DNA of 64,000 nt from a virus. The notes beneath the pieces are model-generated. The model searched no databases. It worked only from the letters and a program-made list of their open reading frames with translations, and was not told the DNA's origin. Positions 3,584 to 57,238 of this stretch are shown one piece after another. A program made the translations under genes and the position numbers. Where the stretch lies: the IMG/VR virus record IMGVR_UViG_3300022225_001767, one strand, 5' to 3'. Positions within the stretch are counted from its first letter, which is position 1, and each line of letters begins with the position of its first letter.

Positions 3584-3652
3584 TTTTTTGTTGCATTTTC
3601 CCTCTACCGTGGTATTATTAACCTATCGAGTTAACCTACTTATTGGCCGAGA

Positions 3653-6432: not shown

Positions 6433-7704
6433 ATGAACGTACAAGACAAAATCAAATTCACATCTGAACTCGCAAACCCTGAAGGTTTTTGCATTTCACT
6501 GCGAGAAACCAATGCAAATAAGCATTTTGGTTACGCTTTAGAGGACGTGATTTTGAATGAGACGCCTCTTGCAAAAGTGCACTACGCTGATTTGTTTACA
6601 TATATGCACAGAAGGTTCGGACTGCCGAATATGCCAGGTAATCCGTACAAAGATTTGTCCGCACCTTGGTTTTTAACCACACCACATGATGACGTTTTCT
6701 TAAAAGTTTCGCCAAGCGTTAGTGGTGTTGGATACTGCTTTAATCCTTACATTCTTGTTGAAGATGAATTTCTAAGCAGGGACAAAATTGATGAAAGCAA
6801 TATCCCTGAATATATCGCGGCTTATAAAGATACGCTGAATGATTTGCTCAGACCCGTTTGCGTTCGTGATAGTTATATCAATGCTTTGGGTAAGCTGGAT
6901 TATGACAGCCCATACATGGAATATATAGAAGAGTCCGACGAACATGAAGGCGGTCATGTTTACGTTGTTAAACATGCTGAATCTTCGGGTTGTTGCGACC
7001 CGTTTAGATTATTTGGAAGCGATGATTATTTTGATCTAAACATCATTTTTGATGCATTGGGTGCTGGTGATGCCAAAACAGGTATAAAGCAAGGAGTTAA
7101 AGCCTTACAAGAGAAAATCATAATACGTATTTCAGCCGAGAGTGAAGATGTGGTTGTAACCATATTGGCGTGGCTACTTTTCTTATCTGATGAGAAAGCA
7201 ACACTTGTAGCAAGTCAGATCTTAGGTCTATTCGACAAAAAAACTTCAGAAGCGTTGCACAATAAGGCGACGTTGCTTGCAGAATCTCTAAAAGGAGGGT
7301 CGGAGTTCGACTTTTATCGTTTACGAGAAGAATCAGTAACCAAAGCTGCTAGGTTGCTATCAATAATTGGTTTTGAAAACAACCTCAAGGACACGCTTGA
7401 AAATGCGCATCAAAACCAGCGCTACAAACATTATTCAGCTGAATTGAACTTGATTCTTGGCAATTTGGAAGATTCAGAAGAAAACCAAAAAATCATTCCT
7501 ACAGTTGATGAAGATGACATGTTTTTCCAGAACGTCAATAAAGATTGGTTGGCAGCACTTGACCCAACTAACCATGCTGCTCTTATTGATTGGTATAATA
7601 AAGTAGCTAGCACTCCTAATGGTGTTGAGTATGTACTGCACATTCTTCTGGATTGGCATGAAAGAAACAAAAAAGGCGTGTGCAACGATGCTGTGATATC
7701 GTGA
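6433..7704 (+). CDS. Hypothetical protein
   Basis: 423-aa ORF, no motif recognised. Confidence 0.75.
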   Translation: MNVQDKIKFTSELANPEGFCISLRETNANKHFGYALEDVILNETPLAKVHYADLFTYMHRRFGLPNMPGNPYKDLSAPWFLTTPHDDVFLKVSPSVSGVGYCFNPYILVEDEFLSRDKIDESNIPEYIAAYKDTLNDLLRPVCVRDSYINALGKLDYDSPYMEYIEESDEHEGGHVYVVKHAESSGCCDPFRLFGSDDYFDLNIIFDALGAGDAKTGIKQGVKALQEKIIIRISAESEDVVVTILAWLLFLSDEKATLVASQILGLFDKKTSEALHNKATLLAESLKGGSEFDFYRLREESVTKAARLLSIIGFENNLKDTLENAHQNQRYKHYSAELNLILGNLEDSEENQKIIPTVDEDDMFFQNVNKDWLAALDPTNHAALIDWYNKVASTPNGVEYVLHILLDWHERNKKGVCNDAVIS

Positions 7705-14355: not shown

Positions 14356-17300
14356 TGCACACCCCCTTGTGCCACACTGACATCATTTAGTTTAAACGTG
14401 TTGCGGATCACACATGCTGCATTATCTTTTTTCTCCCATAATGCAGCACGAGCATCCAACGCCTCAAGCATCGCTTCTCTTGTGCCATCATTTTGATGCT
14501 TAGCCCAGCACATAAGCGTATTTAAGAACGCACCTTCGTTAAGCGCATCTTTCACATACGACACGGCACTTCGTTGCATGTCGGCCATTTTTTCGTGCAT
14601 CATTAGCGCGTGGTTGTTTACCGTTAGACGCGCCAGAGGGTTCTCCTCAAAATACTTCACCGCATCACGGTCGAGTAGCTTATACCAACCTTCAGGAGAA
14701 GAAAAATAGTCCATAAAGTGTGTCATTGCACCGTGGTATAGTAGCCAGTCACGAGGCACATTGATGTGGTCAAAATGCTTAAGCTCACCTTTCACGGCAT
14801 CCAGCATCACGAAGTAATTAGTGATTTCCTTAAAGCCTTCAATGTGATTGTTGTACAAACGCGTCAACTGCTGGCATACACCGTCAGAAAGATCTGACCA
14901 ATACTGATTGTAACGCTCTTTAAGCGCACGTCGCATTTCGTTGCGTGGTGCTCTTACGTTATCAAGTAAATATCTCGCTTTGTAGCTTCGATACGCTTTC
15001 ATATCCATCACGTCATCAATAGCAAGACCGATAGTGGCTTTTATTTCAGGTCGATATGTGCTCAGTTTAATCGGAATTCCAGCAGCACCGTCAAGCGCCA
15101 TTTGACGTAGCATGTCATCATCCAACATATACAGCCCCATCGACGCAAAATATTCCGTGCGCTTGATGATCCTTGCAGCATGACGCTTACTGTCTTGTGT
15201 TAGGTCAAAAATACCAAATCGCATCATCTGTTCAAAGGCGCGGGTACCGCTGTACTGATAAATACTTTCGCCTCGGCTTTCGCGGCGTTCCACAGTCTCG
15301 TCGTGTAACTGTAGCGCGCGCTCTATCCCATCCACCTCCATCCAATCTGCGGTACGAATATGGTCAAGCTGGTATCCACCCGTTACCGTTGACTCGAAGT
15401 AGTCCATTGTCCAATGTTGATAATTCAACTCAGGAACATATACAGGCACTGACTGCGTCACAGCCTCTTTATAAAGTGGAACCGGAGAACGCTCTTTAAA
15501 AGAGTATGTATTAAGGCTGGTGCGACCACGCTCGGTGATACGCATAACTCCACCTTTACGGCTCACTTTCTTCTTGGCACGGCGTGATGCCTGTATTTTC
15601 CTTTCCACATTTCGAGGTGATGACAAAAAGCGCTCAACCCCTTCAATGGCTGAAATAAAGTTAATATCCAGCGTTTCAGATGGGCGAAGGTGCGCATACT
15701 TTTCTCTGTCTTTAGGACTAAGAAAGTAATTGGCGTCACGCATTGGCATACGTGAGCTCATTGGCACTGGCTGCCACTCACAGTTTTCTGCTTTTTCATT
15801 GCCTAGGGTTAAAGGCATTGTGGCTGTTGGTCGCTGTGACACCGCGCCCGCCGTTGGCACCACCATAATGGCATCAGGGATATCATCAACCGTCGCACCT
15901 ACCGGGTCAACATCAGGGTAAGGGATGCGTTCACCGTTATATGTTTTGTCCCACACCGCCATCGCACGGTAGTGAGGCAGACGAACACCATCACGTGAGT
16001 GTATAAGGCTTAAAAACAACGAAATATCGGCTGACATCGGTTTTATCAAGTGACGCTGCGCATATTGCTTGTATACCGCTGCAAACTCTTCGCGATCTTC
16101 TTCACTGAGCAAAGGATCATTAATAATGTCGGCATAACCTTCATCGTCCATTTCTCGCCCATCAGCCACTAGCTGCTTAAAGCGTTCTGCACGGATGCGG
16201 TCGTCGTGTGTCGCCTGGCAAAGCAACCAGATGATTTTATCAATCGTTTTGGCGTTTAATACATTTGGCTGTAATGCCACTGCACCTGTTGTTTCATCAA
16301 CCGCTCTTGCATGCCATGTACGATTATTAATATCTTGGGCAACGTGCATGATGTAGTTTCTAACTTTAAGAATGTTGCCGCTGATAGCACGGTGACGTTT
16401 TTGCATCGCTTGCGCTTCACCAGACTTATCGGTAATACTTTTTGCACACAGGTAGCAACCAGTTCGCGCACTACCGCCACAACCACCCGCTTTTTGAGAG
16501 TCGCCTTTTAGGCGTTTTGATGATGTTGGGCAAGTGCCATCTTTTGAGTCGCTGTAAATCATATGAAGCAAACGATGGTTCTTCGCAAATGATGGAATGG
16601 GGGCGTTGCCCGAGTAGCTGTCAACCAGTGGCTTAGTGCCGGCTCGACGTAGAATAATCCACACTTCATCTGTGGTCATGCTAACAATAGGCGCAAATAC
16701 ACGTTCGTTATTTTGGTCGCACTCCACCAAGTCATCTGCTGTTAGGGTATCTTGCCCACGTTTTTTCAAAGAGGCGGCACGTTTAGCAGACTCTTCTGAG
16801 CGAGAACCAAGCAGGGTAACAACACGGTTACCATAATCTTTTGCCACTTGACGCTCAATGATCTCAGCATTGTCCACTTTCATGATTTGACTACAGTCAT
16901 TGTTAACGCGTGCCGTAGAGATTATTTTAAGACCACTAAGGAAAAGAGACGCCCACTGCTTAGCAAGAGGAGGTAGACCCACTCGCATATCGATGTTAAG
17001 CCCTTGCTTTTTACCAAAAGCGACAAGGCGATCTCGTTCATAAAGCGACAAAATTTGAACCAAGTGATTCTCTACGCCGGTATCAATGTTCGTGAACACT
17101 AAAGGGTGGTCCGCAGGCACTTTCCCTTCTTCAATGAGTTCTCTTAGCGCCTGAATAGCTGCCAGCATAACAACGGTACTGTCTTTACCAAAACTCGTCG
17201 CACACACGCACACATAGGATGTCATGATGACCTTAATGCTGTCTACGGCCTCTCTGAATAGCGCATAAGCTCTATTTTCAGCCGCAGCCGCCTCGACGCG

Positions 17301-17382: not shown

Positions 17383-17431
17383 GTGTTGACGTATTAAGCA
17401 TATCATAACAAACGTTGACCCTAGAGTCAAC
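17383..17431 (-). promoter_or_regulatory. sigma70 promoter with GTCAACAC motif and GTTGAC-N6-GTCAAC palindrome
   Basis: TTGACT-17-TATGAT-11-GTCAACAC(17390-17383); palindrome 17414-17431 over the -35. Confidence 0.75.
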
Positions 17432-21621: not shown

Positions 21622-21865
21622 AGTTCAGACTATACACCACAACGTTTTTGATGTGAACGTCTACCGTATAATTTCGCAGAAAAAACCGCCATCAATGTCA
21701 TCACATCACGGCACAGTGTCTGTTCAAAAGTGGTTTCATCGTCGCCATCAAGACGATATCGCCGGTGACCACCGAGCGTCTACGAAAAGATTACCAAAAG
21801 TTCACATTAAAGTTAATTTTTTTTGTTGATTTCTCACACCTACAGTGTCTTATTTTATATTTTTG

Positions 21866-21908
21866 TTGACCGCACCGTCACCACTTGATATTCTGTACAC
21901 GTCAACAC
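21866..21908 (+). promoter_or_regulatory. sigma70 promoter with GTCAACAC leader motif
   Basis: TTGACC-17-TATTCT-6-GTCAACAC(21901-21908), GAGGA, ATG 21924. Confidence 0.75.
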
Positions 21909-26985: not shown

Positions 26986-27028
26986 GTGTTGACCACACAA
27001 CTATACCAAAAAACGCGAGATTTTGAAA
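26986..27028 (-). promoter_or_regulatory. Promoter with GTCAACAC leader motif
   Basis: TTTCAA-17-TATAGT-6-GTCAACAC(26993-26986), ATG 26971. Confidence 0.65.
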
Positions 27029-27034
27029 CAAAAA

Positions 27035-27056
27035 AAGCACCGAAGGTGCTTCTTTT
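27035..27056. terminator. Intrinsic terminator
   Basis: AAGCACC-GAA-GGTGCTT with A/T flanks. Confidence 0.7.
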
Positions 27057-27081
27057 ATTTTATTTCATTTTGTTTTATTGT

Positions 27082-27831
27082 TTAGCACTTTTTGCGACGA
27101 AAAGCGCCTGCCATCATCATCAGTAACCCTGCCGCACCTAATGTTGCCGGAGAAGAAACGTCTGTTGTCGCATCGCTAGGATCATCAATTACATCGTCTG
27201 GCTGATAGGTGTAATACAATGACATCTCGATATTTAAATCTGGCGACTCAAAAAAACCACGTGCACCCGGCGCATTAACTTCCAAAATAGAATATGAACT
27301 GAAATCAATATCAAATGAGCCTGAGTCGATAAAATTATTGTTAAGCGCTGTATTTACCTGAACGTTACTTACGCCACCTGAGAAACGATCCCCGTTCATT
27401 ACATAAGTGTCTGGGCCGTTTCCCCCTACAGACAATGTGGGATCTGCCGCAAGTGTAAAGCTCTCTTGCTTTTCACCCGATACGGTATTAAATATATCGT
27501 TAAAGTTTTCGTCCAAAAAAGGCATATCTGCATCAAGAAATGCGCCGCCACCCAAACGCATAGTGCCTTGCACCTCTTTGTTCGTTTGATTATCGGCACC
27601 GATAAAGCCACCTAAAATTTCAATATTGTAACTAACAAAAACACCTGTCAGTGTACCTAGGTTGATATCAAAGTAGTCAAACGTGAATGGGTCTATGCTG
27701 GCTGACGCTGAGTTGTTACCCGCAGAGCCACTGTAGTTATGCGATTGTACGCCAGTTTGCTCGTCTGCATATGCAGTGCTCGCCAAAAGGGCTGTCGCTA
27801 AAATAAGAGGACGTACTTTACTGTTACGCAT
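27082..27831 (-). CDS. PEP-CTERM-like surface protein (choice-of-anchor-E-like N-terminus)
   Basis: Signal peptide; FDINLGTLTGV; C-terminal DVSSPATLGAAGLLMMMAGAFRRKKC. Confidence 0.75.
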   Translation of the reverse strand: MRNSKVRPLILATALLASTAYADEQTGVQSHNYSGSAGNNSASASIDPFTFDYFDINLGTLTGVFVSYNIEILGGFIGADNQTNKEVQGTMRLGGGAFLDADMPFLDENFNDIFNTVSGEKQESFTLAADPTLSVGGNGPDTYVMNGDRFSGGVSNVQVNTALNNNFIDSGSFDIDFSSYSILEVNAPGARGFFESPDLNIEMSLYYTYQPDDVIDDPSDATTDVSSPATLGAAGLLMMMAGAFRRKKC

Positions 27832-27881
27832 TTTTTATCCTTGGGTTAATTTGTTAATTATCTTGCTATAGGAAGATTTAT

Positions 27882-27951
27882 CCAATAGTCGTGCCAAAAT
27901 TAAACCCCTTCATTTCGTTAACTTACCCAAATAGTGTCAGGTTTTTTTACA
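27882..27951 (-). promoter_or_regulatory. Putative sigma54 promoter with upstream TGT-N11-ACA site
   Basis: Minus-strand TGGCACGACTATTGG (27896-27882) and TGTAAAAAAACCTGACA (27951-27935). Confidence 0.5.
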
Positions 27952-28175
27952 CACACTCACTCACACTACAAAAAAGTGTAAAAACTTATCTTGCTATTGA
28001 AACTTCTATTTTTCAGTGTTATTGTTTCTACAGTGCACCTTTTATCATTCCTCTGATTTTTTGGGTGCACCCCAACGTATTGTGCTTGGACACGCAATAC
28101 TCTCGCCTCTCTTTTTAGGGAGGCTTTTTTTTATCTTCCTATTGCTTTTATATCAATATACCCTATTATTACTAT

Positions 28176-28282
28176 AAGGTAGCCATCCACGGTTACCCAG
28201 CTCCCTCACCAACGTTTCCCCTCGGTGTTCTCTGGTATGTGTTGACAGCTATCATAAAGCATAAGGAAACGGAGGGAGCGCA
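28176..28282 (+). ncRNA. Candidate structured sRNA or leader RNA 1 carrying the anti-GTCAACAC seed
   Basis: TTGCTT-16-TATTAT promoter; 5' hairpin 28178-28197; long stem 28200-28219/28265-28279; loop holds ATGTGTTGAC 28237-28246. Confidence 0.55.
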
Positions 28283-28391
28283 CCTCTTCTATTGAAATCT
28301 CTTCCTATTTATGCCATAATTCATCTTGTCATCACATTGCATCAAGTAGCCCCCTTTATAACAATGAAAGCTGCTTGCCACAGGAGAATTC

Positions 28392-28796
28392 ATGCAGGAC
28401 TGTTTTTCTTTTCTGTCTCATCGTGTAGCGTTGAGGTCAGACGGTACTATATTATTAGAAAATCAATTAACGGGATCGACAATACCTCTGACTCAAGAGT
28501 CGATTGCGACGTGGACCTGCCCCCTTTACCCTGCTCAACGTGAGCGAAAAATCGGGGGGAATATTACGGTAACACATGAGAGCGATAATTATTGCACCCT
28601 GCGAATTGGCGCGCGTTACTATGTTATGCCTTATACACTATTTTGCATACTCAACAAGGCGCTTCTTATTATAAAAGTTTACCCGCTGAGTACACTCAAC
28701 CTAACGTTAAGTAACTTGTTGTATCGACTATCAAAAGGCGCATCGACGTCATCGTTGATACAGACCTCTTCACACGCGCTACCGATAGCCGTATAA
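28392..28796 (+). CDS. Hypothetical protein
   Basis: CAGGAG RBS, 134 aa. Confidence 0.55.
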   Translation: MQDCFSFLSHRVALRSDGTILLENQLTGSTIPLTQESIATWTCPLYPAQRERKIGGNITVTHESDNYCTLRIGARYYVMPYTLFCILNKALLIIKVYPLSTLNLTLSNLLYRLSKGASTSSLIQTSSHALPIAV

Positions 28797-28810
28797 TTTA
28801 AGGAAAATCC

Positions 28811-29089
28811 ATGAGACGTCTACATCACACGCTATTTATATCTTTATCAATGCTCGCATTGTCAGCCTGTCAATCTGTAGCCGATGACGTGAGAAACGAA
28901 GAGCCTACATGCAATAACATCCAGGCTCAATGCCTGATTGCTTGGGACCGTTACTTAAACCTAACTGAGTCAGCATATCAAACATGCATGTCCCACAGCG
29001 GTCGCTGCGAAGAGCTTGAAACATTATTAAGCCAAGGGCGAGAAAACATGGTGTCGCTGGTAGAAAGACGTACGCGTTCTGAGCAGTAA
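28811..29089 (+). CDS. Small lipoprotein
   Basis: Lipobox LSAC; paired Cys. Confidence 0.7.
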   Translation: MRRLHHTLFISLSMLALSACQSVADDVRNEEPTCNNIQAQCLIAWDRYLNLTESAYQTCMSHSGRCEELETLLSQGRENMVSLVERRTRSEQ

Positions 29090-29186
29090 CGTCGCGCTAG
29101 GCATAATCTTTAACAAAAACATTGCGGAATTCCGCGACTCTATTCTTCGAATGAGTCGTCGGAGGTTTAAATTAACTAGCATCAAT

Positions 29187-29214
29187 AAAAAAGGCCACCT
29201 GTGTGACCTTTTTT
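29187..29214. terminator. Bidirectional terminator
   Basis: AAAAAAGG-CCAC...GTGA-CCTTTTTT between convergent genes. Confidence 0.65.
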
Positions 29215-29234
29215 TATTTAGCCTTGGAGTAGCA

Positions 29235-32200
29235 TTAGAAGCTGCTACCACCACTTCCGCCACACACTCCAGTGCGGTTCGTATTAGGCACTAATGCCTT
29301 GAACACCCCATTAAAGCTACTTGACGTTGTGGTTTTATACGGCGTTGAGCTACGTTGTAGCACACGACCTGACTGGTACGTATCCCAATAGTAGTACTTC
29401 GTCACAATCGTCGTCTCGCTCCATGTGTATTCGTCAGAGCGATAGAAGCCAATCGGGTTACGCGCACAGAACTCAGCTTCCGTATATTTCGCTTCAGGTG
29501 ACACTAAGCGTCGTCTTACGTTAGCGCTAGATTGAGACTGTGTTGTTCTCGTTTCCGTACTCACAACACTATCCTGCTTTGTCCCCGAACGGCGTCGCGT
29601 TGGGTTCGTGACCACAGTGTCATACTGGTAAGTGACGTTCGTTGTCGGAGCACTGCCATCACTGTAGTTCGTCGTAGTGGTAATCGCACGCTTCCTATTC
29701 TCTGTACAGCGCTGCGTCTGCGTTTTCGTTTCAAACGTGTAATATGAAGACTGCGCAGGTGTCCATGATGTACATGAATAACCTGTACGCTGCCATGCAC
29801 CGGTTGACTGCTGCGTCGTTAGTGTACGACTTTGGGTGTAGCTTCGCGAACCATTCTTAGTTTGCGTATGCACCGTATTTCCGTTTATCTTATGCACATA
29901 CGTAACTTGTTGCGGTTGCGTACAAGAACGAGTCTGCGTACTACCTCCCGTCCAGCTTCCACAGGTTGGACTGCCAACATCCTGCCACCCATTGTGAGTT
30001 ACAGCAACCGTACGGCTTTGCGTCTGATCCCATGTCGTGTTCTCAGGGCGCGTTGTTAACGTGTTAGAACCGGCTTTATACGTCCACGTTCTTGTCACAT
30101 CACGCTTGTAAGGACGTGTCTGGGTGTAGTTTGCTGTCTGGTTACCGTACGCTGGCGTAAACGTTCCATGGCTGTGTGTTCTTACCGTTGACCAACCACT
30201 GACTGATACCGATATTGTTCGAGATTGCGTACTACCCACATTCTGCGTATCTGTTTCTGTGTTTCGATACGTGTTGCTGCTGTAATCCCACGTGTAGTAG
30301 GTCGCACGGGTGCGCTTCTGAGGTTGATTACAGCTACGCGTTTGCGTGAAGTTAGACGTTTGCGTGCTTGGCGCTGGTGAATAGCCGCCACAGCTGAGCG
30401 AACCGTTATTGCTCCATCCAGACCAGCTACCGTACGCAATACCTTTCATGCGATTGGTTCGGCTCTGGCTCTGGTTTGTGGTACGCGTGTCATCACGCGT
30501 ACTTAACGTGGTCGAGCCCACTTTGTATGTCCACGTACGCTTCTGATCTTGTTTGTAGGTGCGCGTCTGGGTGTAGCTTGATGTGCGCGTACCAGGCTCA
30601 GGTGTCCAACTTGAGAATGAGTGGTTTCTAACATAGGTCCACCCCCCTCCCGTTACATCAACCGTTCGCGACTGCGTACTGCTTACATTCTGCGTGCCTG
30701 TTTCCGTGTTACGGTACGTGTTGCTGCTGTAATCCCATGTGTAATAGGTCGCACGCGTACGCTTCTGTGGCTGACTACAGCTGCGTGTTTGTGTGAAGTC
30801 AGACGTTTGCGTGCTTGGCGCTGGTGAATAGCCACCACAGCTGAGTGAACCGTTATTACTCCAACCTGACCAACCACCGTAAGCAATGCCTTTCATGCTG
30901 TTAGTACGGCTTTGGTTCATATCTACAGTGCGAGTTTCATCGCGTGTATCAAGTGTCGTCGTGCCAGCTTTATATGTCCACGTACGCTTTTGATCTTGCT
31001 TATAGGTGCGAGATTGCGTGTAATTTGATGTGCGCGAACCAGGCTCAGGTGTCCAACCAGTAAAGGTATGATTTCTTACATAGCTCCAGCCGCCTACTGA
31101 CACAGCCACTGTTCGAGACTGCGTGCTGCCTACCGTTTGCGTGTCTGTTTCTGTGTTGCGATATGTGTTGTCGCTATAAGCCCAACCATAATACGTTGCT
31201 CGCGTGCGTTTTTGCGGTTGACCACAACTTCTTGTTTGGGTGAAGTTGGATGTTTGCGTGCTTGGTGCTGGTGAGTAATTTCCACAACTCAAAGAACCAT
31301 TGTTGCTCCAACCAGACCAATTGCCATAAACGATGCCTGTCATAGAGTTGGTTCTGTTTTGGCTTTTGTTGACAGTGCGCGTTTCATCACGGGTATCTAG
31401 CGTAGTTGACCCCACCTTATACGCCCAAGTGCGCTTCTGGTCTTGCTTGTAGGTGCGAGATTGCGTGTAATTTGATGTGCGCGTGCCAGGCTCCGGCGTG
31501 TACGCTGAGTACGTATGATTTCTTACAGCACTCCAACCACCTACTGTTACATCAACCGTTCGCGACTGCGTGCTGCTTACATTCTGCGTGTCTGTTTCCG
31601 TGTTACGATACGTGTTGCTGCTGTAATCCCATGTGTAATAGGTCGCGCGCGTACGTTTCTGCGGCTGACTACAGCTGCGTGTTTGTGTGAAGTCAGACGT
31701 TTGCGTGCTTGGCGCTGGTGAATAACCACCACAATCTAATGAGCCGTTGTTACTCCAACCTGACCAACCACCGTAAGCAATGCCTTTCATGCTGTTAGTA
31801 CGGTTTTGGCTTTGGTCTACAGTGCGCGTTTCATCACGTGTATCAATCGTGGTTGTTCCCACCTTATATGTCCACGTACGCTTTTGATCTTGCTTGTAGG
31901 TGCGAGATTGCGTGTAATTTGATGTGCGCGAACCAGGCTCTGGCGTCCATCCCGAGTACGTGTGGTCTTTCACAGCACTCCAACCACCGACTGATACGTC
32001 AACGGTGCGAGATTGCGTCGAACCATTAGTGCGTGTTTCAGCATCCTTTTCTTTGAAAGTATCGCTGCTGTGCGCCCACGTGTAAAAAATGTCTCTTTCG
32101 CGTTTTTGTGGTGTGCCGCAGCTTCGCGTTTGAGAAAAGTCAGCCGTTTGCGTCGATGGTGTTGGCCCCCAGTTTCCACATGAAATGGAACCGGTGTTAG

Positions 32201-35180
32201 TCCATCCACCCCATGAGCCTTCTTTCAGACCATTCATGGTGTTGGTGCGATTTTGCGTCCGATCAATCGTTCTAGACTCACTTCGCGTACTCAATGTTTC
32301 AGCGCCCGCTTTGTATGTCCATGTACGAGTCTGATCTGTCTTATACGTGCGAGATTGCGTATAGCTCGACGTGCGCGTGCCAGGCTCTGGCGTATAGGCT
32401 GAATACGTATGGTTACGCACATTTGACCAGTTGCCTGCTGCAACATCAACCGTGCGAGATTGTGTGCTTGGTACGCTTTGCGTACCTGTCTCGTTACTTC
32501 TAAATGTATTACTGCTATATGTCCACTTATAATACGTTGCGCGTGTGCGCTTTTGTGGCTGCTGGCAGCTTCGTGTTTGCGTGAAGTCCGCTGTTTGTGT
32601 ACTTGGCGCAGGTGAGTAACCGCCGCAATTTAATGCGCCGTCATTGCTCCATGAAGACCAGCTTCCGTAAGCAATGCCTTCCATCTTATTAGTTCGCGTC
32701 TGCGTCACAGGAACACGTTTCGTCTCTTCAAAAGAGGCAATCTCTGTCCCGCCTACACTGTAAACACGCTCACGCTTTTGAGGCTGCTGACAATCTCTTG
32801 ACTGCGTGTAATCAGCCGTTTTAGTGCCAGGTTCACCACCCCAAGCGTCACAGCTTTCAACTGAACCATAATTTACCCAGTTAGTATAGCTTACTTTAAC
32901 AGCACGTGACTGCGTTGAACCGTCAGTGCGCGTTTCCGTTTCAGTCTCTTTAAACGTATCTGAGCTGTGCGCCCATGTGTAAAAAGTGTCACGCTCACGC
33001 TTCTGAGGTGTACCACAATCTCTTGATTGCTGGTAGTTTGCTGTTTGCGAAGCAGGCTCAGGCCCCCATGCGCCGCAGCTAATAGGACCTGTGTTTGTCC
33101 AGCCACTCCACGCATCATTTTTAACGCCATTCATCGAATTGGTACGTGTTTCACTCTTGTCGAGTGTTCGCGTTTCTTGTCGAGTGCTTAGCGTTGTTGT
33201 ACCGTCAGCATAGCTCCATGTTCTTACCTCGTCTTGCTTGAATGTGCGCGACTGCGTGTAGCTTGATGTACGTGCACCGGGTGCTGGCGTCCATCCGCTG
33301 TACGTATTTTTATCCACTAGCGACCACGACGATGGTGTAACAGTTACCGTACGAGAATCCGTTCTTGATGCCGTACCCGTATCAGTCTGCGTTTCTTTAA
33401 AGGTGTTGTCACCGTAAGTCCAGCTGTAGTGGACGTCTCTGGTTCGCTCTTGTGGACGGGTGCATGTTCTTGATTGGCTAAAGTTGGCTGTTTGCGCGCC
33501 TACTGCTGGTGAGAATGTGCCGCAGGTTTCTGCACCACTGTCAGCAAAAGGTGACCATGCGCCATAAACAAGGCCATCCATCTTATTAAGACGAGATTGT
33601 GATACGCGAACCGTTTGCGATTCTTCTACGCGTTTCAGCTCACTGCCTGATGCAGCATAAATGCGTTCTCTTACTTGAAGTTGATCGCACTCTCTTGATT
33701 GTGTGTAGTCAGAGGTATTGCTGCCAGGCTCTGGCGACCATGCAGAACAATTTTGCACACCGTTCTTGTTTGTCCACGATGTCCAGTCTACGGTTACTGT
33801 ACGCGATTCCGTTGTCGGATCGGTTCGCGTTTCCGTTTCTTCAGCTTTAAACGTATTGTCACTGTGCGTCCACGTATAGAAAGTGTCACGCTTTCGCTCT
33901 TGAGCCGTGCCGCAGTCGCGCGTTTGTGTAAATGCGCTGGTTTGCGCATCAGGCGCAGCGCCCCATGCGCCACACACAGTGGCCGCAGTGTCAGTCCATG
34001 AAGACCAACTATCAGCTACGACACCTTCCATGACGTTTTTACGCGTCTGCGTTACATCAATATTTTTACTTTCTTTAACCGTGCTTAATGTCTCTCCACC
34101 CGCGGTGTAAATACGATCTCGCGTTTGAGGCTGTTCACAGCTTCGTGTCTGGTCATAACTGGCAACTCTTCCCTGAGGCTCTGTTCCCCACACACTACAA
34201 CTAACTACATCACCCTCGTTAGTCCATGGTGTAAATGTCACGCCTACCGTTCTGTTTTCCGTACGCGTCACTGTTTGCTCATGGGTTTCAGTTCGGTTGA
34301 GCGTTTCTTTACCTGACACCCATACATCGAAGAAGTCCTGTGTTCTCTCCTGATCGCGCGAACAATCTCTCTCCTGACCAAAATCAGCCAATTGCCCGCC
34401 GACAGACGGAGACCAAACGGCACAGTCATAATTTCCGGTTACATCTACCCATGGAGATGGCGTGTCTGGACGAATTCCGTCAATCTCATCACGCTGCCCA
34501 ATCTCTGGTCGCGTTTGCTCAACCGTTATGGTTTGTTCCTCACTGTCAATGCGCTTTGGTGTCTCAGCACCCGATGCCCATACATTGTAAACGTTTCTGC
34601 TTCGAGTCTGATCTTGCGAGCAATCGCGCGCTTGCGTGAAGGGTTCATAAAGTCTTACGTCTGATGTCGATGGATCCCACACAGAGCAGTCGTAAGGGGC
34701 ACCGCTATTAGACCACTCAGGCCATGCATCTGCACGCTCACCATCAATGAAGTCACGCGTACCAATATTATTTTGATAATCGCCAACAGAGATGGAACGG
34801 GTATCTTCGAAAGTGTCACCTAATTTTGTGCGTTGTGAAACAGGGTTGAAGAGAATAGGTGTCGCATTTCTTACTTGTGGCTGCTGGCACACACGCGACT
34901 GTTGAAAAGATTCACCCCAATCCTTTGTGTTTGGATCAGGTTGCCAACCCGAACAAGAGCTAAACCCACCTGAATTCACCCAAGGTGTGTAGTTGTAATT
35001 GATGACAATCCACTCAGGAACGTTCACTTTGTTTTCTATGTTCATTTTGAAGCGATAAATAGGTTTGTCATTACTCGCTTCTTGAGCAAAGGCATCTGCT
35101 GATAATGCCAGCCCCCCCGTAAGGGCGGAAAGTAACATAATCGCCGTATTCTTTTTCCTGACCGTGAATTGACTTTTCAT
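29235..35180 (-). CDS. Giant secreted repeat protein with thrombospondin-type-1-like repeats (putative adhesin)
   Basis: Signal peptide; about 149-aa units with WSGWS..C..TQTRSC..PQKRTR; Thr/Ser/Trp/Arg-rich. Confidence 0.85.
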   Translation of the reverse strand: MKSQFTVRKKNTAIMLLSALTGGLALSADAFAQEASNDKPIYRFKMNIENKVNVPEWIVINYNYTPWVNSGGFSSCSGWQPDPNTKDWGESFQQSRVCQQPQVRNATPILFNPVSQRTKLGDTFEDTRSISVGDYQNNIGTRDFIDGERADAWPEWSNSGAPYDCSVWDPSTSDVRLYEPFTQARDCSQDQTRSRNVYNVWASGAETPKRIDSEEQTITVEQTRPEIGQRDEIDGIRPDTPSPWVDVTGNYDCAVWSPSVGGQLADFGQERDCSRDQERTQDFFDVWVSGKETLNRTETHEQTVTRTENRTVGVTFTPWTNEGDVVSCSVWGTEPQGRVASYDQTRSCEQPQTRDRIYTAGGETLSTVKESKNIDVTQTRKNVMEGVVADSWSSWTDTAATVCGAWGAAPDAQTSAFTQTRDCGTAQERKRDTFYTWTHSDNTFKAEETETRTDPTTESRTVTVDWTSWTNKNGVQNCSAWSPEPGSNTSDYTQSRECDQLQVRERIYAASGSELKRVEESQTVRVSQSRLNKMDGLVYGAWSPFADSGAETCGTFSPAVGAQTANFSQSRTCTRPQERTRDVHYSWTYGDNTFKETQTDTGTASRTDSRTVTVTPSSWSLVDKNTYSGWTPAPGARTSSYTQSRTFKQDEVRTWSYADGTTTLSTRQETRTLDKSETRTNSMNGVKNDAWSGWTNTGPISCGAWGPEPASQTANYQQSRDCGTPQKRERDTFYTWAHSSDTFKETETETRTDGSTQSRAVKVSYTNWVNYGSVESCDAWGGEPGTKTADYTQSRDCQQPQKRERVYSVGGTEIASFEETKRVPVTQTRTNKMEGIAYGSWSSWSNDGALNCGGYSPAPSTQTADFTQTRSCQQPQKRTRATYYKWTYSSNTFRSNETGTQSVPSTQSRTVDVAAGNWSNVRNHTYSAYTPEPGTRTSSYTQSRTYKTDQTRTWTYKAGAETLSTRSESRTIDRTQNRTNTMNGLKEGSWGGWTNTGSISCGNWGPTPSTQTADFSQTRSCGTPQKRERDIFYTWAHSSDTFKEKDAETRTNGSTQSRTVDVSVGGWSAVKDHTYSGWTPEPGSRTSNYTQSRTYKQDQKRTWTYKVGTTTIDTRDETRTVDQSQNRTNSMKGIAYGGWSGWSNNGSLDCGGYSPAPSTQTSDFTQTRSCSQPQKRTRATYYTWDYSSNTYRNTETDTQNVSSTQSRTVDVTVGGWSAVRNHTYSAYTPEPGTRTSNYTQSRTYKQDQKRTWAYKVGSTTLDTRDETRTVNKSQNRTNSMTGIVYGNWSGWSNNGSLSCGNYSPAPSTQTSNFTQTRSCGQPQKRTRATYYGWAYSDNTYRNTETDTQTVGSTQSRTVAVSVGGWSYVRNHTFTGWTPEPGSRTSNYTQSRTYKQDQKRTWTYKAGTTTLDTRDETRTVDMNQSRTNSMKGIAYGGWSGWSNNGSLSCGGYSPAPSTQTSDFTQTRSCSQPQKRTRATYYTWDYSSNTYRNTETGTQNVSSTQSRTVDVTGGGWTYVRNHSFSSWTPEPGTRTSSYTQTRTYKQDQKRTWTYKVGSTTLSTRDDTRTTNQSQSRTNRMKGIAYGSWSGWSNNGSLSCGGYSPAPSTQTSNFTQTRSCNQPQKRTRATYYTWDYSSNTYRNTETDTQNVGSTQSRTISVSVSGWSTVRTHSHGTFTPAYGNQTANYTQTRPYKRDVTRTWTYKAGSNTLTTRPENTTWDQTQSRTVAVTHNGWQDVGSPTCGSWTGGSTQTRSCTQPQQVTYVHKINGNTVHTQTKNGSRSYTQSRTLTTQQSTGAWQRTGYSCTSWTPAQSSYYTFETKTQTQRCTENRKRAITTTTNYSDGSAPTTNVTYQYDTVVTNPTRRRSGTKQDSVVSTETRTTQSQSSANVRRRLVSPEAKYTEAEFCARNPIGFYRSDEYTWSETTIVTKYYYWDTYQSGRVLQRSSTPYKTTTSSSFNGVFKALVPNTNRTGVCGGSGGSSF
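30000..34800 (-). repeat. In-frame tandem repeats, period about 447-450 bp
   Basis: M[KTNED]G[IVL] unit starts recur at about 30450, 30895, 31340, 31790, 32235, 32680, 33135, 33580 and 34030. Confidence 0.85.
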
Positions 35181-35399
35181 AATTTTCTCTCTCTTGTTTA
35201 TTCGCCGCAGCAGCGCAACATAAGCAAACAGTTCAAAGTGTGTCTCTTTTTATCCACAGTAAGGTATCACTTTTCTGAAAAAACGACGGGATAAATGTGT
35301 TTTTTTTAAATATTTATACCTTTTTGTCGCTAATTCACCCATATAACAAATTGCTGTAAAAAATCTTGACACCTAAAGCGAAGTGTGAGAATCTTCTAA

Positions 35400-35546
35400 G
35401 CATAGATTTTATGAGCAGGTGCAACAGTGCCTGCCACAGCTCCGCCACCCCGACCTCTGTGATGTGTTGACGCTATTCACGCTAAAAAAATGGGGTGGCA
35501 CCCTCTCACTAGTGGTGGTGAACTGGCCGGCGAAAGCCGGCCTTTT
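35400..35546 (+). ncRNA. Candidate sRNA 2 carrying the anti-GTCAACAC seed
   Basis: TTGACA at 35366; 5' hairpin 35415-35434; stem GCCACCCC/GGGGTGGC 35444-35451/35492-35499; seed ATGTGTTGAC 35462-35471; terminator 35525-35546; no ORF. Confidence 0.65.
35525..35546 (+). terminator. Intrinsic terminator
   Basis: GGCCGGC-GAAA-GCCGGCC-TTTT; T-tract only on the + side. Confidence 0.8.
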
Positions 35547-35777
35547 ACTATCCAAATCAATACCAATCTAATTTCTTGCCCTCTCTAACGTTAACCTCAA
35601 CTTAACCACTTCAATCACACTTGTTGCATTTTTGTTTAATTTTATGTGTTATCTAAATTTTACTGTTGACTTTGTGTTCAGTTCTGGTATTATTTAAACC
35701 GTCAAACAAACAGCAAGCCAATAACGCTTGTTAAACATGAATATATTATTCACATCAACCACCACAGGATATACATT

Positions 35778-36818
35778 ATGAAGAAAACATCTCTATTTGC
35801 ATCTGTTGCCCTAGCTTGCGCGATGCCATTTGCAGCATCAGCTGAACTCTCACTAATGGGTTATAATGTTGCGGATGTACCAAGCAACACAACACTAAGT
35901 GAAGTCAATGAAACAACAAGTTACATCGGAGACGTCACTTACCTCACCGCCATTCAAAAAACTGACGACAATAGCACTTACAGCGTGTCTTTGTCTGTTG
36001 ATTTTGACGGTGCTTATAATGCCGCTGCACGATGTACCACACTATCTAACTCTCTGTTTGAAAGCTACGCTGAAGAATATTCTGCAACGCAAGGCGACGA
36101 CAGTTCGGCTCTTACTTTCACTGATGAATATGGCGCAACGTTACGCCTAGAAGACGGCTGTTATACCAGCAACACGCTCTCTTTGACACTAAGCTCTCCG
36201 ACTGAAATCAGTGCGCCTTTAGGCGATACAGAAGAAGCGCTGCTTTACATCATCACCACCGATGCCCCACTGTCTTCAGACGGCGACGTTGAGCAAGGTG
36301 AGCCTGAAGATGGCGACCATAAATATTACGGCCCCGGCCCAACGCCGGTTGACGTTGAAGCGACTGGATCGATTCGTCCTATTGGCAAGGTAACCCAAAA
36401 ACCTGCCAAAGAAGGCAACCACAAGTTCTACGGCCCGGGCCCTGTACAGCCTATCTACAAGACCGCTGAAGCAGGCATTAGTAAACTTCGTCCTGTTGGC
36501 AAGGTAACCCAAAAACCTGCTAAAGAAGGCAACCACAAGTTTTACGGCCCAGGTCCTGTACAACCTATCTACAAGACCGCTGAAGCAGGCATTAGTAAAC
36601 TTCGTCCTGTTGGCAAGGTAACCCAAAAACCTGCTAAAGAAGGCAATCATAAGCGCTTCGGTCCGGGCCCTGTACAGCCCATCTACAAGACCGCTGAAGC
36701 AGGTGTTAGCAGCTTGCGCCCTGTTGGCAAGGTAACCCAAAAACCTGCCAAAGAAGGCAACCACAAGTTCTACGGCCCGGGCCCTGTAAAACCAGTTAAC
36801 CCCTTTGGACTTCGCTAA
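35778..36818 (+). CDS. Secreted protein with acidic N-domain and basic 38-aa tandem repeats
   Basis: Signal peptide; unit RPVGKVTQKPAKEGNHKFYGPGPVQPIYKTAEAGISKL. Confidence 0.85.
   Translation: MKKTSLFASVALACAMPFAASAELSLMGYNVADVPSNTTLSEVNETTSYIGDVTYLTAIQKTDDNSTYSVSLSVDFDGAYNAAARCTTLSNSLFESYAEEYSATQGDDSSALTFTDEYGATLRLEDGCYTSNTLSLTLSSPTEISAPLGDTEEALLYIITTDAPLSSDGDVEQGEPEDGDHKYYGPGPTPVDVEATGSIRPIGKVTQKPAKEGNHKFYGPGPVQPIYKTAEAGISKLRPVGKVTQKPAKEGNHKFYGPGPVQPIYKTAEAGISKLRPVGKVTQKPAKEGNHKRFGPGPVQPIYKTAEAGVSSLRPVGKVTQKPAKEGNHKFYGPGPVKPVNPFGLR
36370..36790 (+). repeat. 114-bp in-frame tandem repeat (about 3.7 copies)
   Basis: GGCAAGGTAACCCAAAAACCTG recurs every 114 bp. Confidence 0.9.
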
Positions 36819-36838
36819 TATTTAGTTAATCCAACACA

Positions 36839-36866
36839 AAAAAAAGGCGCGCTTCGCGCCTTTTTT
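36839..36866. terminator. Intrinsic terminator
   Basis: AAAAAAAGGCGCG-CTT-CGCGCCTTTTTT. Confidence 0.85.
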
Positions 36867-36867
36867 A

Positions 36868-36910
36868 TTGATTTCTCACCCCTGTTTTGAGATAATAACC
36901 ATGTCAACAC
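36868..36910 (+). promoter_or_regulatory. sigma70 promoter with GTCAACAC leader motif
   Basis: TTGATT-17-GATAAT-6-GTCAACAC(36903-36910). Confidence 0.7.
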
Positions 36911-36927
36911 AACAGGGTAAAACCACA

Positions 36928-38769
36928 ATGCATAACACACCATTAGCTTCTTTTAGCTCTATCGATGATCCTCAACTTCCAGTCGAGGTTATCCGTGTAA
37001 TCAAAGATCGTTTAGGTGACATACCATCATCAGGCATTGCCGCAGGCCAAGCGGTTGCCAGTGCCATCTTTTATCTTCTAGGTCTCCATGATGGCGTTTT
37101 CAACGACATTGACGTATTTCTCCCCAAATCAAGCGATATCGCTAAGCTCATGGGTGAGTCTTGGAACCCCAAACTTCGCGCAGACAATGACCTTGTTACA
37201 CTCACACACGGTTATCGAGAGACGGGTTTTTCTTCACCCGTTTTCAAAAAAGGTCATTATTACATCATTGGCTCATGCTATTTAGGCAACGTCAATATTG
37301 TTGTTGTCGACAATTTTAATCACTCCCAAATTGGCGCTCAGGATATCATTGGCGGTTTCGACATCAACGCATGTGAAGCAGCGATTGATCTTGAGTCTAT
37401 GACGCTTACGGTATCAGATGCCTTTCGAGACTTCATTAAACACTGGGTACTTGATATCACCACCTATCACACACCAGCACACACCGCGCTTCGCATTGCA
37501 AGAAAGTCACGAGCATTGAACGCTCGCGTCAACAGCACCGCCATGCTTCGTTTGCAAACCATGCTCGCCATCGCAGAAGCCGAAGAGCGACATTATTCGC
37601 TCAATTACACGCGCGGCATGCTAATGGCAGAAAATAACGCGGAAAAAGCAGCTAATGAGCCTCTGGTATGCGAGCACTTCACTTTCCGTGATGTAACCAT
37701 TCAAATTCCGATGGAAGAGGAAGAGGAAGCGTTCATGACGCTAATGCAGCTTTCACCAAAAGCCTGTCACGATGGCGTGGTGGACGCTTACATGTCAGTC
37801 ATTTCCTTTTTAGGGGCACCCGACTTTAGTGTTGCCGCCGCGATTTTTCCTTATCTATGGGATCGTGTCGCCAATAAAGGTGATGATAGCGCCGTGAAGT
37901 GGTTAATAGAAGAAGCGACCGCGCGCGACGCGATGAAACGGGATTGGTTGAGTCGCCCTCAGAGTGAAGAAGAAGAAGCGCTTTATGCAGAAGCATGCGA
38001 AAGGGGCGAGCGTCGTGATGCGCTACTGATGATCTTTATTTGCGCCTTAAGACACCATAACCCTCGTGTATTCAAGTCTCAATCAACATGCATTAACCGC
38101 GCGCTAAAAATGGCAGAGAAACACCCTTTAGCGTTCAGTAAAAATGAAAAGCACCTGACATCTCTAGATGATGCTATCTTGTTTGGGAAAAACCTAAACT
38201 GGTTAGAGAAAAAGCGACTTCATTTAGTGATAGGGATGTATGAAGATAACACGACCTTACTTCCCGCGCTGTCCAACAGACAGTATAAAGCAGCGTTAAT
38301 GCCAATTCTTGACGCCATTTTCTCTAGGATGGAGAACGAACGCGTGACGCCCATTGGAGAAAAGCTAGTCAATGCTCTTAACGCAACAGGCAAAATAAAA
38401 GTGACAGAGTTGACCTCAGAGCTAGAAATGCTTGAGCAAGGTTATGCACAAAAGCATTGTGTTGGTGGTTATTTTCATCAGGTAAAATCAAGGCAGTGTA
38501 TTATTCTTGATGTAGTAACACCTGAAGAGAAAAAATACACCGTGGAATACCGTGTAGTCACACGCGACGGCGAATTTGGTTTTACCAAAAACCAATGCAA
38601 AGGCGTCAACAACCGCCCCATGCCACAAGAGATTAAAAAGCTACTTCCTGAATTCTTCAGCGACAATGGGCACGAGAAAGAGTGGTTCCTAAAAAACACT
38701 TACGCTTCACAGCGAGGTCTACAAGGGAACGAGATAGATTTTGATTATGACGATGATATACCTTTTTAG
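36928..38769 (+). CDS. Class-II nucleotidyltransferase-like / PcfJ-domain fusion with SSB-like acidic tail
   Basis: AGQAVAS...NDIDVF, FDINACEAA, TPAHTALR; LTSELEMLEQGYAQKHCVGGY (PcfJ); ends DFDYDDDIPF. Confidence 0.7.
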   Translation: MHNTPLASFSSIDDPQLPVEVIRVIKDRLGDIPSSGIAAGQAVASAIFYLLGLHDGVFNDIDVFLPKSSDIAKLMGESWNPKLRADNDLVTLTHGYRETGFSSPVFKKGHYYIIGSCYLGNVNIVVVDNFNHSQIGAQDIIGGFDINACEAAIDLESMTLTVSDAFRDFIKHWVLDITTYHTPAHTALRIARKSRALNARVNSTAMLRLQTMLAIAEAEERHYSLNYTRGMLMAENNAEKAANEPLVCEHFTFRDVTIQIPMEEEEEAFMTLMQLSPKACHDGVVDAYMSVISFLGAPDFSVAAAIFPYLWDRVANKGDDSAVKWLIEEATARDAMKRDWLSRPQSEEEEALYAEACERGERRDALLMIFICALRHHNPRVFKSQSTCINRALKMAEKHPLAFSKNEKHLTSLDDAILFGKNLNWLEKKRLHLVIGMYEDNTTLLPALSNRQYKAALMPILDAIFSRMENERVTPIGEKLVNALNATGKIKVTELTSELEMLEQGYAQKHCVGGYFHQVKSRQCIILDVVTPEEKKYTVEYRVVTRDGEFGFTKNQCKGVNNRPMPQEIKKLLPEFFSDNGHEKEWFLKNTYASQRGLQGNEIDFDYDDDIPF

Positions 38770-38868: not shown

Positions 38869-38898
38869 GTTGACTTTGAGGTCAACATTTGAGATTAT
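38869..38898 (+). promoter_or_regulatory. sigma70 promoter with GTTGAC-N6-GTCAAC palindrome
   Basis: Palindrome 38869-38886; TTGACT-17-GATTAT. Confidence 0.65.
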
Positions 38899-56746: not shown

Positions 56747-57238
56747 ATGAAATATGTTATCTGCTCTACTCTCGCAACAATGCTTGCAATCACGCCTATG
56801 CTAACCCATGCAAAGAAACCTCCCGCTGTGCTGCCTATCATCGACACGCTTGGAGGTATAACGTTGGGTAAAGTCAACCCTGATGCGCGAGGATGGGTGA
56901 TGACCCCTGAAAATAACGGCGGCGTCCGTTACCAACAGGTTCCTCAGCGTTTCACTAGTGATGAAGAATATCACATTGTGCTTGCAGAATACCTCACTGA
57001 CGATAGCGATATTGCTGTTGAGTCTAGTATTACTGTGACGTTTTCGTCTACAACATATTGTCAATCTGAATTCTCAGCACTATACCGCCGCTACGCTAAA
57101 GTGCACAACGAGTCGCTCGCCCCAAAAAACTCAGAGACGACTTGGATTACATCTACCGACCATGTGTTGACATGGCGAGAGCATTGCGGCGATGAGACCC
57201 CCACGTTCTCTATGACGCTATCAAAAAACCCGCAATAA
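56747..57238 (+). CDS. Secreted hypothetical protein
   Basis: AAGGA RBS, signal peptide. Confidence 0.7.
   Translation: MKYVICSTLATMLAITPMLTHAKKPPAVLPIIDTLGGITLGKVNPDARGWVMTPENNGGVRYQQVPQRFTSDEEYHIVLAEYLTDDSDIAVESSITVTFSSTTYCQSEFSALYRRYAKVHNESLAPKNSETTWITSTDHVLTWREHCGDETPTFSMTLSKNPQ

Follow-up and report, generated by a model that had tools for sequence, protein, structure and literature searches.

A stable structured RNA encoded by a large marine mobile element, and its candidate role as an anti-leader regulator

A 64,000-nucleotide (nt) stretch of DNA catalogued as the virus record IMGVR_UViG_3300022225_001767, the whole of which we call the window, belongs to a large uncultured marine mobile element. 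A gap of 560 nt separates there two divergent genes, 27082-27831 on the minus strand and 28392-28796 on the plus strand, and this gap contains the gene of a stable structured RNA of about 107 nt, read from the plus strand (28176-28282). This RNA is one of two sibling 'anti-leader' RNAs, the other lying at 35.4 kb: the word displayed in its apical loop, the anti-tag GUGUUGAC, is the exact reverse complement of GTCAACAC, a tag that recurs along the window between promoters and gene starts. The RNA is found in four lineages, namely the window itself, the relatives L001 and L005, the relatives L017 and L018 (helicase homologues at 85% identity) and the relative L035 (86% helicase identity). The features of the locus, with the transcript contigs that cover it, are gathered in Table 1.

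The left border of the RNA gene is an intrinsic terminator, the end of a separate unit of the plus strand; its hairpin, already noticed in an initial annotation made by a model from the letters alone, is kept with different stem letters in L017 and L035. That annotation had also proposed the promoter that comes next, TTGCTT-16-TATTAT, and in this it was right. The -35 box is weak, with three matches out of six, hence its absence from the list of the promoter scan. A promoter sits at the same place in the relatives, TTGACT-16-TATCAT in L001, TTGACT-17-TAGGAT in L017 and TTGACT-17-TACGCT in L035, so that the position is kept in four lineages despite diverged flanks, the three diverged lineages having the better -35 box TTGACT. 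That the RNA is transcribed from a sigma-70-type promoter of its own can be considered as shown. Its first base, 28176, is an A placed 7 nt past the -10 box, while its last one, 28282, lies 3 nt beyond the last pair of the outer stem. The RNA contains no open reading frame (ORF), and no family match was obtained for the small ORFs at 27891-28118 and 28016-28177. The terminator scan found no intrinsic terminator after 28282, in agreement with what had been remarked before; there is no U-tract at this end, and a C-rich, G-poor tract (CACCUCUUCUAUU...) comes downstream of it, likewise in L017 and L035. Because of these two features, the 3' end would probably result from Rho-dependent termination, or from cleavage or read-through, followed by trimming back to the stem.

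The plus strand of this gene has a stable fold (-41.3 kcal/mol, z-score -4.1), as good as that of none of 200 shuffled sequences, and the minus strand (-34.2 kcal/mol, z -1.4) is not better than its shuffles. The bias extends across lineages, with z of -4.1, -4.3 and -5.5 for the plus strand against -1.4, -1.5 and -3.6 for the minus strand, the former being more stable by 5-11 kcal/mol in every lineage. G.U pairs, which become A.C mismatches on the opposite strand, are present in H1 (G7.U18, a wobble pair compatible with the plus strand only), in H3, in H4 and in H5, and L035 has three of them in its apical stem. Since wobble pairs and fold energies favour the plus strand in all lineages, the RNA is assigned to this strand, as the initial annotation had done from the G.U pair of the 5' hairpin. 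The stem GCUCCCUC..CGUUUCC / GGAAACG-GAGGGAGC (28200-28219 with 28265-28279), which it had drawn next to this hairpin around a loop of 45 nt, is also that of the minimum-free-energy fold. A covariance model, R1, built from the four closest sequences, matches L017 at 73.7 bits and L035 at 39.2 bits (E 2e-6). In the alignment guided by this model (six distinct sequences, four lineages), 97.9% of the cells are paired and 15 of 32 pairs are changed on both sides, a count that leans towards structure because the alignment is fitted to R1 and covers four lineages only; none of 500 shuffles reaches either value, and controls with a slid partner give at most three two-sided pairs. From one lineage to the next H1 is rewritten (GGUAGCC/GGUUACC, CAGCC/GGCUG, AGUGGCGU/ACGCUACU, GUGGC/GCCAC), in H2 GCUCCCUC/GAGGGAGC is swapped for GCUCCCC/GGGGAGC, and in H3 C-G turns into U-A and U-A into U.G. 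These are the compensatory changes in relatives by which structured non-coding RNAs are recognized; H1 to H3 are well supported despite the model-fitted alignment, and RNAalifold predicts the same helices. While the stems were replaced, the apex stretches UCUCUG and GGUGUUCUCUG and the loop UGUGUUGACAGC stayed invariant in the four lineages, and so did the CUC of the internal loop, with a probability of being unpaired of 0.69-1.0. A conserved loop amid replaced stems, the very pattern that had first suggested a functional RNA at this place, is thus borne out, and contigs end at the two borders of the gene.

The locus is present in many marine metatranscriptomes: 16 of the runs that contain it are on record as RNA, and the datasets with the locus include 14 studies. 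Four runs, each from a different study (X3, X7, X10 and X12), provided the contigs that were mapped onto 27800-29100, the uncovered parts of this interval not being counted as silence. It must be kept in mind that such contigs are strandless and that their ends are a weak hint only. Contig stops at 28176 are seen in X3 and X7, those at 28282 in X7 and X12, hence in two studies for each end. These stops match to the base features predicted from DNA alone, and DNA contigs pass through the same places; because of this coincidence in two studies each, while DNA contigs continue, we take them as the ends of a discrete RNA. In X12, the contigs limited to the RNA are about 6-8 times deeper than their neighbours, contig depth being a poor measure of expression. 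We read this as a discrete 107-nt RNA and a separately initiated messenger RNA (mRNA) for the downstream gene of 134 amino acids (aa), joined by some read-through (X3, X10, X12), the RNA being mainly a separate transcript. Past 28282 the X7 contig runs into 11 A, then into unrelated letters, which may represent a poly(A) tail on the 3' end of the RNA or an assembly mis-join.

Table 1. Features of the RNA locus and of its sibling, with the metatranscriptome contigs covering the locus (X3, X7, X10 and X12 are the runs named in the text)
Feature	Position	Strand	Description and basis
Intrinsic terminator of the separate upstream unit	28105-28132	+	8-bp stem (hairpin 28105-28124), then T8
RNA promoter	28142-28169	+	-35 TTGCTT 28142-28147, 16-nt spacer, -10 TATTAT 28164-28169; sequence and orthologous place in relatives
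RNA gene, 107 nt	28176-28282	+	Metatranscriptome contig ends, covariance model R1, fold
H1, 5' hairpin GGUAGCC-AUCCAC-GGUUACC	28178-28197	+	6 of 7 pairs changed on both sides across lineages
Long arm	28200-28279	+	Helices H2, H3, H4 and H5, with pair counts below
H2	28200-28207 with 28272-28279	+	5 of 8 pairs changed on both sides
H3	28213-28219 with 28265-28271	+	4 of 7 pairs changed on both sides
H4	28225-28229 with 28258-28262	+	Two invariant G.U pairs
H5	28233-28237 with 28250-28254	+	One-sided changes only (G.U to A-U, G-C to G.U)
CUCU	28230-28233	+	First three bases unpaired in internal loop; can pair with Shine-Dalgarno GAG, AGAG or GGAG
Apical loop, 12 nt, UGUGUUGACAGC	28238-28249	+	Holds anti-tag GUGUUGAC at 28239-28246
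Promoter of the 134-aa ORF with variant tag	28292-28335	+	TTGAAA-17-CATAAT (preceded by TG), variant tag GTCATCAC 28328-28335; promoter scan, start of X7 contig 15
Downstream genes, 134 aa and 92 aa	28392-29089	+	Some read-through from the RNA promoter (X3 28176-29037, X10 28186-28427)
Sibling RNA	35400-35548	+	Same anti-tag apex (GUGUUGAC at 35464-35471), own terminator
X3 contig	28176-29037		Spans RNA and downstream genes
X7 contig	28176-28282		Then loose run of 11 A
X7 contig 15	28328-28603		Separate; 28283-28327 uncovered in X7
X10 contig	28186-28427		Joins RNA to ORF start
X12 contig	28185-28274		Depth 528; adapter before 28185
X12 contig	28245-28282		Depth 441; adapter immediately past 28282
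X12 flanking contigs			Depth 68-72

The tag GTCAACAC occurs 20 times in 64 kb where about two copies are expected, which makes it the most over-represented 8-mer except an A-rich word; as a 10-mer with at most one mismatch it has 23 matches, for 6.3 ± 2.7 expected. About 16 of the 20 exact copies share one layout: a -10-like box, often preceded by TG as in TGAGATAAT, then usually 6-7 nt, the tag, 2-10 nt, a Shine-Dalgarno sequence and a start codon, the tag being always sense to the gene. If mRNA starts are read from this promoter layout, some 16 mRNAs of the element would begin, or nearly so, with the complementary GUCAACAC. The tagged genes, scattered from 0.8 to 59 kb, comprise three C-5 DNA methylases or their operons, DndB-like and DndC-like genes, a PIF1/Dda-like helicase, a PcfJ fusion, a cpYpsA SLOG protein and several small ORFs; a 1981-aa repeat protein, a Calx-beta metalloprotease and a UDP-glucose dehydrogenase are untagged. 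The members of the tagged set look like 'establishment' genes. In the helicase leader, the tag is kept in L017 and L035 despite different flanks. Only two of the intergenic copies are antisense to the local transcript, and these are the apices of the RNAs at 28.2 and 35.4 kb. A literature search with the tag 8-mer retrieved only primers and unrelated -35 boxes, and narrow searches found, in the literature searched, no description of a tag-plus-anti-tag RNA of this kind.

The sibling RNA at 35.4 kb is preceded by TTGACA and an extended -10 box; it displays a 5' hairpin, an outer stem GCCACCCCG/UGGGGUGGC, an unpaired ACCUC, a 5-bp stem UGUGA/UCACG that closes the loop UGUGUUGACGCUAU, and, in its 3' domain, a good terminator. 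The 17-mer pattern CTCTGNNATGTGTTGAC has exactly two occurrences in the window, at 28230 and 35455 (0.13 expected with two mismatches or fewer), and CUCUGnnAUGUGUUGAC is found at these two places only, within stems that are unlike, as may be expected from sibling RNAs. Common to both are the 5' hairpin, a G/C-rich outer stem, an unpaired CUC (as CUCU immediately 5' of the apical stem in the sibling) and a 5-bp stem closing an anti-tag loop of 12-14 nt, the anti-tag beginning at nt 64-65 in both when the start of the sibling is taken as 35400. The initial annotation had aligned the loop with 35455-35478: CTCTGNNATGTGTTGAC is indeed shared, but what appeared as differences within the loop is a covarying 5-bp stem, UGGUA/UAUCA in one RNA and UGUGA/UCACG in the other. 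Its claim of a same fold stands for the architecture and the apex, and does not extend further: H3 and H4 are missing in the 35.4-kb RNA, the terminator domain is missing in the 28.2-kb RNA, and R1 did not find the sibling with default filters, giving 10.1 bits only and a poor alignment once filters were off. The likeness of the two RNAs is one of architecture and apex, and homology beyond the apex is unsupported by the covariance model. The 35.4-kb locus is identical in nine further contigs, from which no variation is gained. A third exact ATGTGTTGAC is present at 57162-57171 (+), inside the 3' end of ORF 56747-57238, where it sits in a small hairpin, CCAUGU-GUUG-ACAUGG, some 60 nt before the terminator of that ORF; this copy could be due to chance (about 0.1 expected) or belong to a third anti-tag RNA, derived from a 3' end.

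The apices may also tell us how such RNAs came to be. The minus strand of the 28.2-kb apex reads TATGAT-AGCT-GTCAACAC-ATACC-AGAG, a full leader cassette, and that of the 35.4-kb apex reads GTCAACAC-ATCAC-AGAGG. In L017 (6555-6620, minus strand), the promoter and leader of a 674-aa gene, inserted beside the RNA gene in this lineage, resemble the minus strand of the RNA apex (TTTTATGATATTATCAACGCATACCAACAATG compared with CTTTATGATAGCTGTCAACACATACCAGAGAAC). Because the minus strands of both apices read as cassettes made of a -10-like box, the tag, a 5-nt spacer and AGAG(G), and because the leader of the 674-aa gene in L017 is alike, the letters suggest that each apex originated from a tagged promoter and its leader, copied in inverted orientation. 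The RNA is thus antisense to a generic tagged leader. Such an origin would explain the presence of TATGAT on the minus strand of the 28.2-kb apex.

The best explanation of the whole, to which we give a probability of roughly 0.55, is a small RNA (sRNA) made from its own promoter and displaying an anti-tag, which would pair with the tagged leaders and lower the expression of the tagged gene set. In computed ensembles the eight bases of the anti-tag are on average 59% unpaired, the central UUGA being about 99% unpaired; UUGA conforms to YUNR, a loop motif frequent in antisense RNAs, which is a weak indication since the motif is short. Opening of the anti-tag loop is computed to cost about 3.5 kcal/mol (3.5-4.7 kcal/mol), and the core duplex of 8-10 bp with the tag to yield -10 to -12.7 kcal/mol. 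A ranking of all gene starts by RNAduplex, inflated by long loops, merely confirms what the motif implies. In the process that we propose, the free 5' tag of an mRNA would meet the apical loop of the RNA, the apical stem would open, and pairing would spread into CUCU and the Shine-Dalgarno sequence, blocking the binding of ribosomes or exposing the mRNA to decay. The RNA and its 35.4-kb sibling would in this way turn down the tagged set, with its DNA methylases, Dnd-like modification genes, helicase and PcfJ proteins. It is likely that the RNA helps to switch these genes off as a group; repression by pairing is what we infer from the sequences, and activation through protection of the 5' end is conceivable instead. 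In a fuller form, on which we would not quite bet at even odds, the element would run an RNA master switch: one 5'-terminal tag on establishment and anti-restriction genes, and two sibling anti-leader RNAs with apices made of inverted cassettes, one of them a free-standing sRNA with a terminator and the other, at 28.2 kb, a terminator-less member coupled to an operon whose tag carries an escape mismatch.

Several points weigh against repression by pairing. The contigs carry no strand, and their ends are weak evidence. Most targets are complementary to the RNA over a short length only, 8-10 nt with a further 3-4 nt beyond an internal loop, and cofolding of whole molecules brings a gain of -0.2 to -2.7 kcal/mol, against -4 to -13 kcal/mol for the sibling; because of this small gain, the RNA may be a weaker or more conditional partner than its sibling, or require a chaperone. 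It has no Hfq-type terminator or U-tail, whereas the sibling at 35.4 kb has a terminator. Every relative found has the same tag and the same anti-tag, which leaves no co-variation to compare. The more distant L019 and L020 (53% helicase identity), L021 (51%) and L025 (54%) display no enrichment of GTCAACAC and no match of the model to an RNA, and have CA-rich leaders or other palindromes instead. Finally, palindromes of the form GTTGAC-N6-GTCAAC exist in the window at 17414-17431 and 38869-38886, with a partial one at 21865-21882, as would suit a protein.

These palindromes belong to the main rival reading of the tag, which we deem unlikely, where it would be a DNA site: a repressor encoded by the element would recognize the asymmetric GTCAAC(AC), located around +1 in many promoters, the copies in the RNA genes being protein sites or relics of inverted promoters, and the RNA having some other role. 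In Cluster A mycobacteriophages, asymmetric operators or stoperators, spread over the genome and oriented with transcription, are read as DNA by the repressor, gp71 in L5 (PMC6550527), which results in genome-wide control, and the copy number, strict orientation with transcription and intergenic position of the tag match these 20-30 asymmetric sites (PMC6550527), the exact copies being, for about 16 of 20, sense and just upstream of genes. The distant relative L019, besides, has inverted repeats around its -10 boxes. Unlike the stoperators, the tag has a counterpart in a complementary RNA loop, and a repressor candidate was not found among the neighbouring proteins, most of which are without family match. 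A DNA site leaves unexplained the presence of the motif in the apical loops of two different, expressed, covarying RNAs, each time beside an unpaired CUC, as well as the invariance of the whole 45-nt apex amid changing stems; both copies in the RNA genes are oriented opposite to their own transcripts, and in the helicase leader of L017 the tag lies some 15 nt past the -10 box, not 6-7 nt, so that its geometry with respect to the promoter is not fixed. Control at the DNA level and at the RNA level may coexist. The palindromes overlap some promoters, and their half-site is made of the first six bases of the tag, so that a DNA-binding protein may read the same motif.

The genes downstream call for yet another reading, distinctly improbable in our view, in which the RNA would belong to the operon 28392-29089, either as its 5' leader acting in cis or as a stable remnant of processing, with a structure that only sets read-through or stability and without any action in trans. 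The initial annotation had offered a leader of 28392-28796 as an alternative, and the connection exists: no terminator follows the RNA, contigs of X3, X10 and X12 bridge it with the downstream genes, and in each of the four lineages the 134/137-aa gene comes immediately after it. Relatives whose contigs extend far enough have both the 134-aa and the 92-aa gene behind the RNA (for L035, the start of the 134-aa orthologue only). The ORF, however, has its own promoter, in a region conserved in L001, L005 and L035, L017 reading GTCTTCAC. X7 contig 15 begins precisely at 28328, the first G of GTCATCACAT, a tag with one mismatch located 7 nt past TTGAAA-17-(TGc)CATAAT, and the preceding 45 positions, after the end of the RNA, are those uncovered in this run. 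Moreover, a leader acting in cis needs no invariant anti-tag loop in common with the unlinked 35.4-kb RNA. The tag in the leader of the 134/137-aa gene has a central mismatch: it is GTCATCAC in the window and in L035 (about 422-415, minus strand) and GTCTTCAC in L017 (minus strand, about 6165), and the leader, mismatched to the RNA loop, reads GUCAUCAC in the former two, GUCUUCAC in the latter. Were the anti-leader RNA to act by pairing, this variant tag would weaken its control of the adjacent operon, which is read into from the RNA promoter, a possible case of escape or attenuation. In the assembly collection, 155 blocks contain the 134-aa protein without any change of sequence, and the contigs that carry it reach 447 kb.

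It is hardly credible that the locus is a tagged promoter of the minus strand (TATGAT, 4 nt, GTCAACAC) with an incidental structure, the case which the initial annotation itself feared for its proposal. TATGAT does precede the minus-strand tag by 4 nt and, contigs being strandless, an additional minus-strand start is possible; as the sole source of RNA, a start at 28246 is contradicted by the RNA contigs that cover 28247-28282, upstream of it, and stop at the plus-strand start site, as well as by wobble pairs and fold energies which favour the plus strand in all lineages. The plus-strand promoter is conserved, the spacing of 4 nt differs from the 6-7 nt of most tagged promoters, and no Shine-Dalgarno sequence or ORF exists on the minus strand. 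That the RNA binds a protein or serves as a decoy (for CsrA, say, or a protein recognizing the tag duplex), in place of regulating by base pairing, is very improbable too, even if relatives of the element encode CsrA and the RNA is abundant and highly structured, for an array of GGA loops is missing, the Rfam families of such RNAs give no match, and the conserved part of the RNA is exactly the complement of the tag.

How does a trans-acting anti-leader RNA compare with known systems? With Rfam, cmscan of the whole window at gathering score gave no match, and at E up to 10 the interval 27800-28500 gave noise only and no C4, rseX reaching 23.9 bits for a cut-off of 50 on the upstream unit. A single-strand DNA promoter akin to Frpo was rejected, since TTGACA lies in the loop and not in the stem and since the RNA exists, as were a sponge for CsrA, for want of an array of GGA loops, and a riboswitch, for want of a match in Rfam. 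RNA-OUT of IS10 is made opposite a single target, RNA-IN, with about 35 nt of complementarity, and the 5' end of the mRNA pairs with its loop, which covers the ribosome-binding site. Pairing that begins at the loop with the extreme 5' end of an mRNA, covering the ribosome-binding site, is proposed here as well, but the RNA is encoded in trans, with 8-10 nt of complementarity and many targets; no Shine-Dalgarno sequence or ORF lies opposite it, which sets it apart from antisense RNAs encoded in cis, of the IS10 RNA-OUT, CopA or Sok type. The proteins RegA and RegB of T4 shut off early mRNAs post-transcriptionally via translation-initiation regions; the class-wide shut-off of early mRNAs would be alike, whereas an RNA, not proteins, would act here. 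The Qrr RNAs of Vibrio and the sibling sRNAs of Neisseria reportedly control chromosomal regulons via Hfq, with terminators present. As in these families, two unlinked genes of one replicon share the same seed in different scaffolds; unlike them, one of the siblings is without terminator, and the targets share an engineered-looking 5'-terminal tag. RNAs of the c4 and P4 CI type have loops that pair with non-overlapping sites, one contact providing specificity and the other occluding the ribosome-binding site (PMC5320573, PMC8201110), and in the C4 family the mature 5' end is created by RNase P processing of a longer transcript (PMC5320573). Like c4 of P1 and P7 and the CI RNA of P4, the 28.2-kb RNA comes from a mobile element, is small and stable with several hairpins, and precedes genes transcribed in its own direction; its anti-tag loop and unpaired CUC(U) could, in the model, contact the tag and the Shine-Dalgarno sequence as the two segments of C4 do with their sites. 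As there is no Rfam match, it is not a member of the C4 family. Its 5' end at 28176 appears, from sequence and contig ends, to be the promoter start and not an RNase P cut; it has one loop and the CUC of an internal loop instead of two loops, and its target would be a tag on about 16 scattered mRNAs, not one operon. It is this target, a short tag at the 5' end of some 16 scattered mRNAs of the same element, that would be new relative to known systems.

Provided that the pairing takes place, over a dozen scattered genes of a mobile element are controlled post-transcriptionally, several orphan DNA methylases and Dnd-like genes being in the tagged set, by means of one short 5' tag and small RNAs. 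This would be the RNA counterpart of genome-wide repressor/stoperator systems and a wider version of the RNA immunity of P1/P4 type, and uncultured elements could then be searched, by a simple and testable rule, for early or establishment genes under common control. As the RNA and the element are found in many marine metagenomes and metatranscriptomes, the system would be ecologically widespread and active. The window carries many orphan methylases, Dnd-like genes and PcfJ proteins, together with a lytic transglycosylase. Homologues of its helicase (51-55% identity) are carried by contigs of 49-595 kb, where their neighbours are DnaE-type pol III alpha, ribonucleotide reductase and a sigma-70-family factor and, further, thymidylate kinase, CsrA, PcfJ and TnpB-like genes (loci L019 and L020 included). 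The whole looks like a very large plasmid-like element or a huge phage, within a family of such elements. Megablast of 27000-37000 gave no match in phage or plasmid collections, and the helicase protein had no relative in genome_contigs or viral_contigs; the search with the RNA pattern retrieved one identical Tara contig in metagenome_contigs (L024) and none in viral_contigs.

Other conserved features accompany this element. Just upstream of the RNA gene, a small transcription unit of about 100 nt (27997-28132, +), with the promoter TTGAAA-17-(TG)TATTGT, a terminator and no family match, is conserved in L001, L017 and L035: the place of the promoter and the motifs CCUCUGAU and CCCAACGU are kept, the terminator has other stem letters, and an internal hairpin displays compensatory changes (GUAUUGUG/CGCAAUAC, GUGUUACG/CGUGACAC, GUACUUUG/CAAAGUAC). 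Among the distant relatives, a tandem 9-mer, GATACAGTA, present in at least seven copies (L019, 9574-9640; L020, 1-60), lies inside a 212-aa gene (L019, 9267-9905, minus strand) beside the helicase gene. In L021, the motif AATCATTATGATTA recurs at several promoters (for example 3590-3650, 6500-6560 and 14450-14510), and probably belongs to a different regulon, of the operator type.

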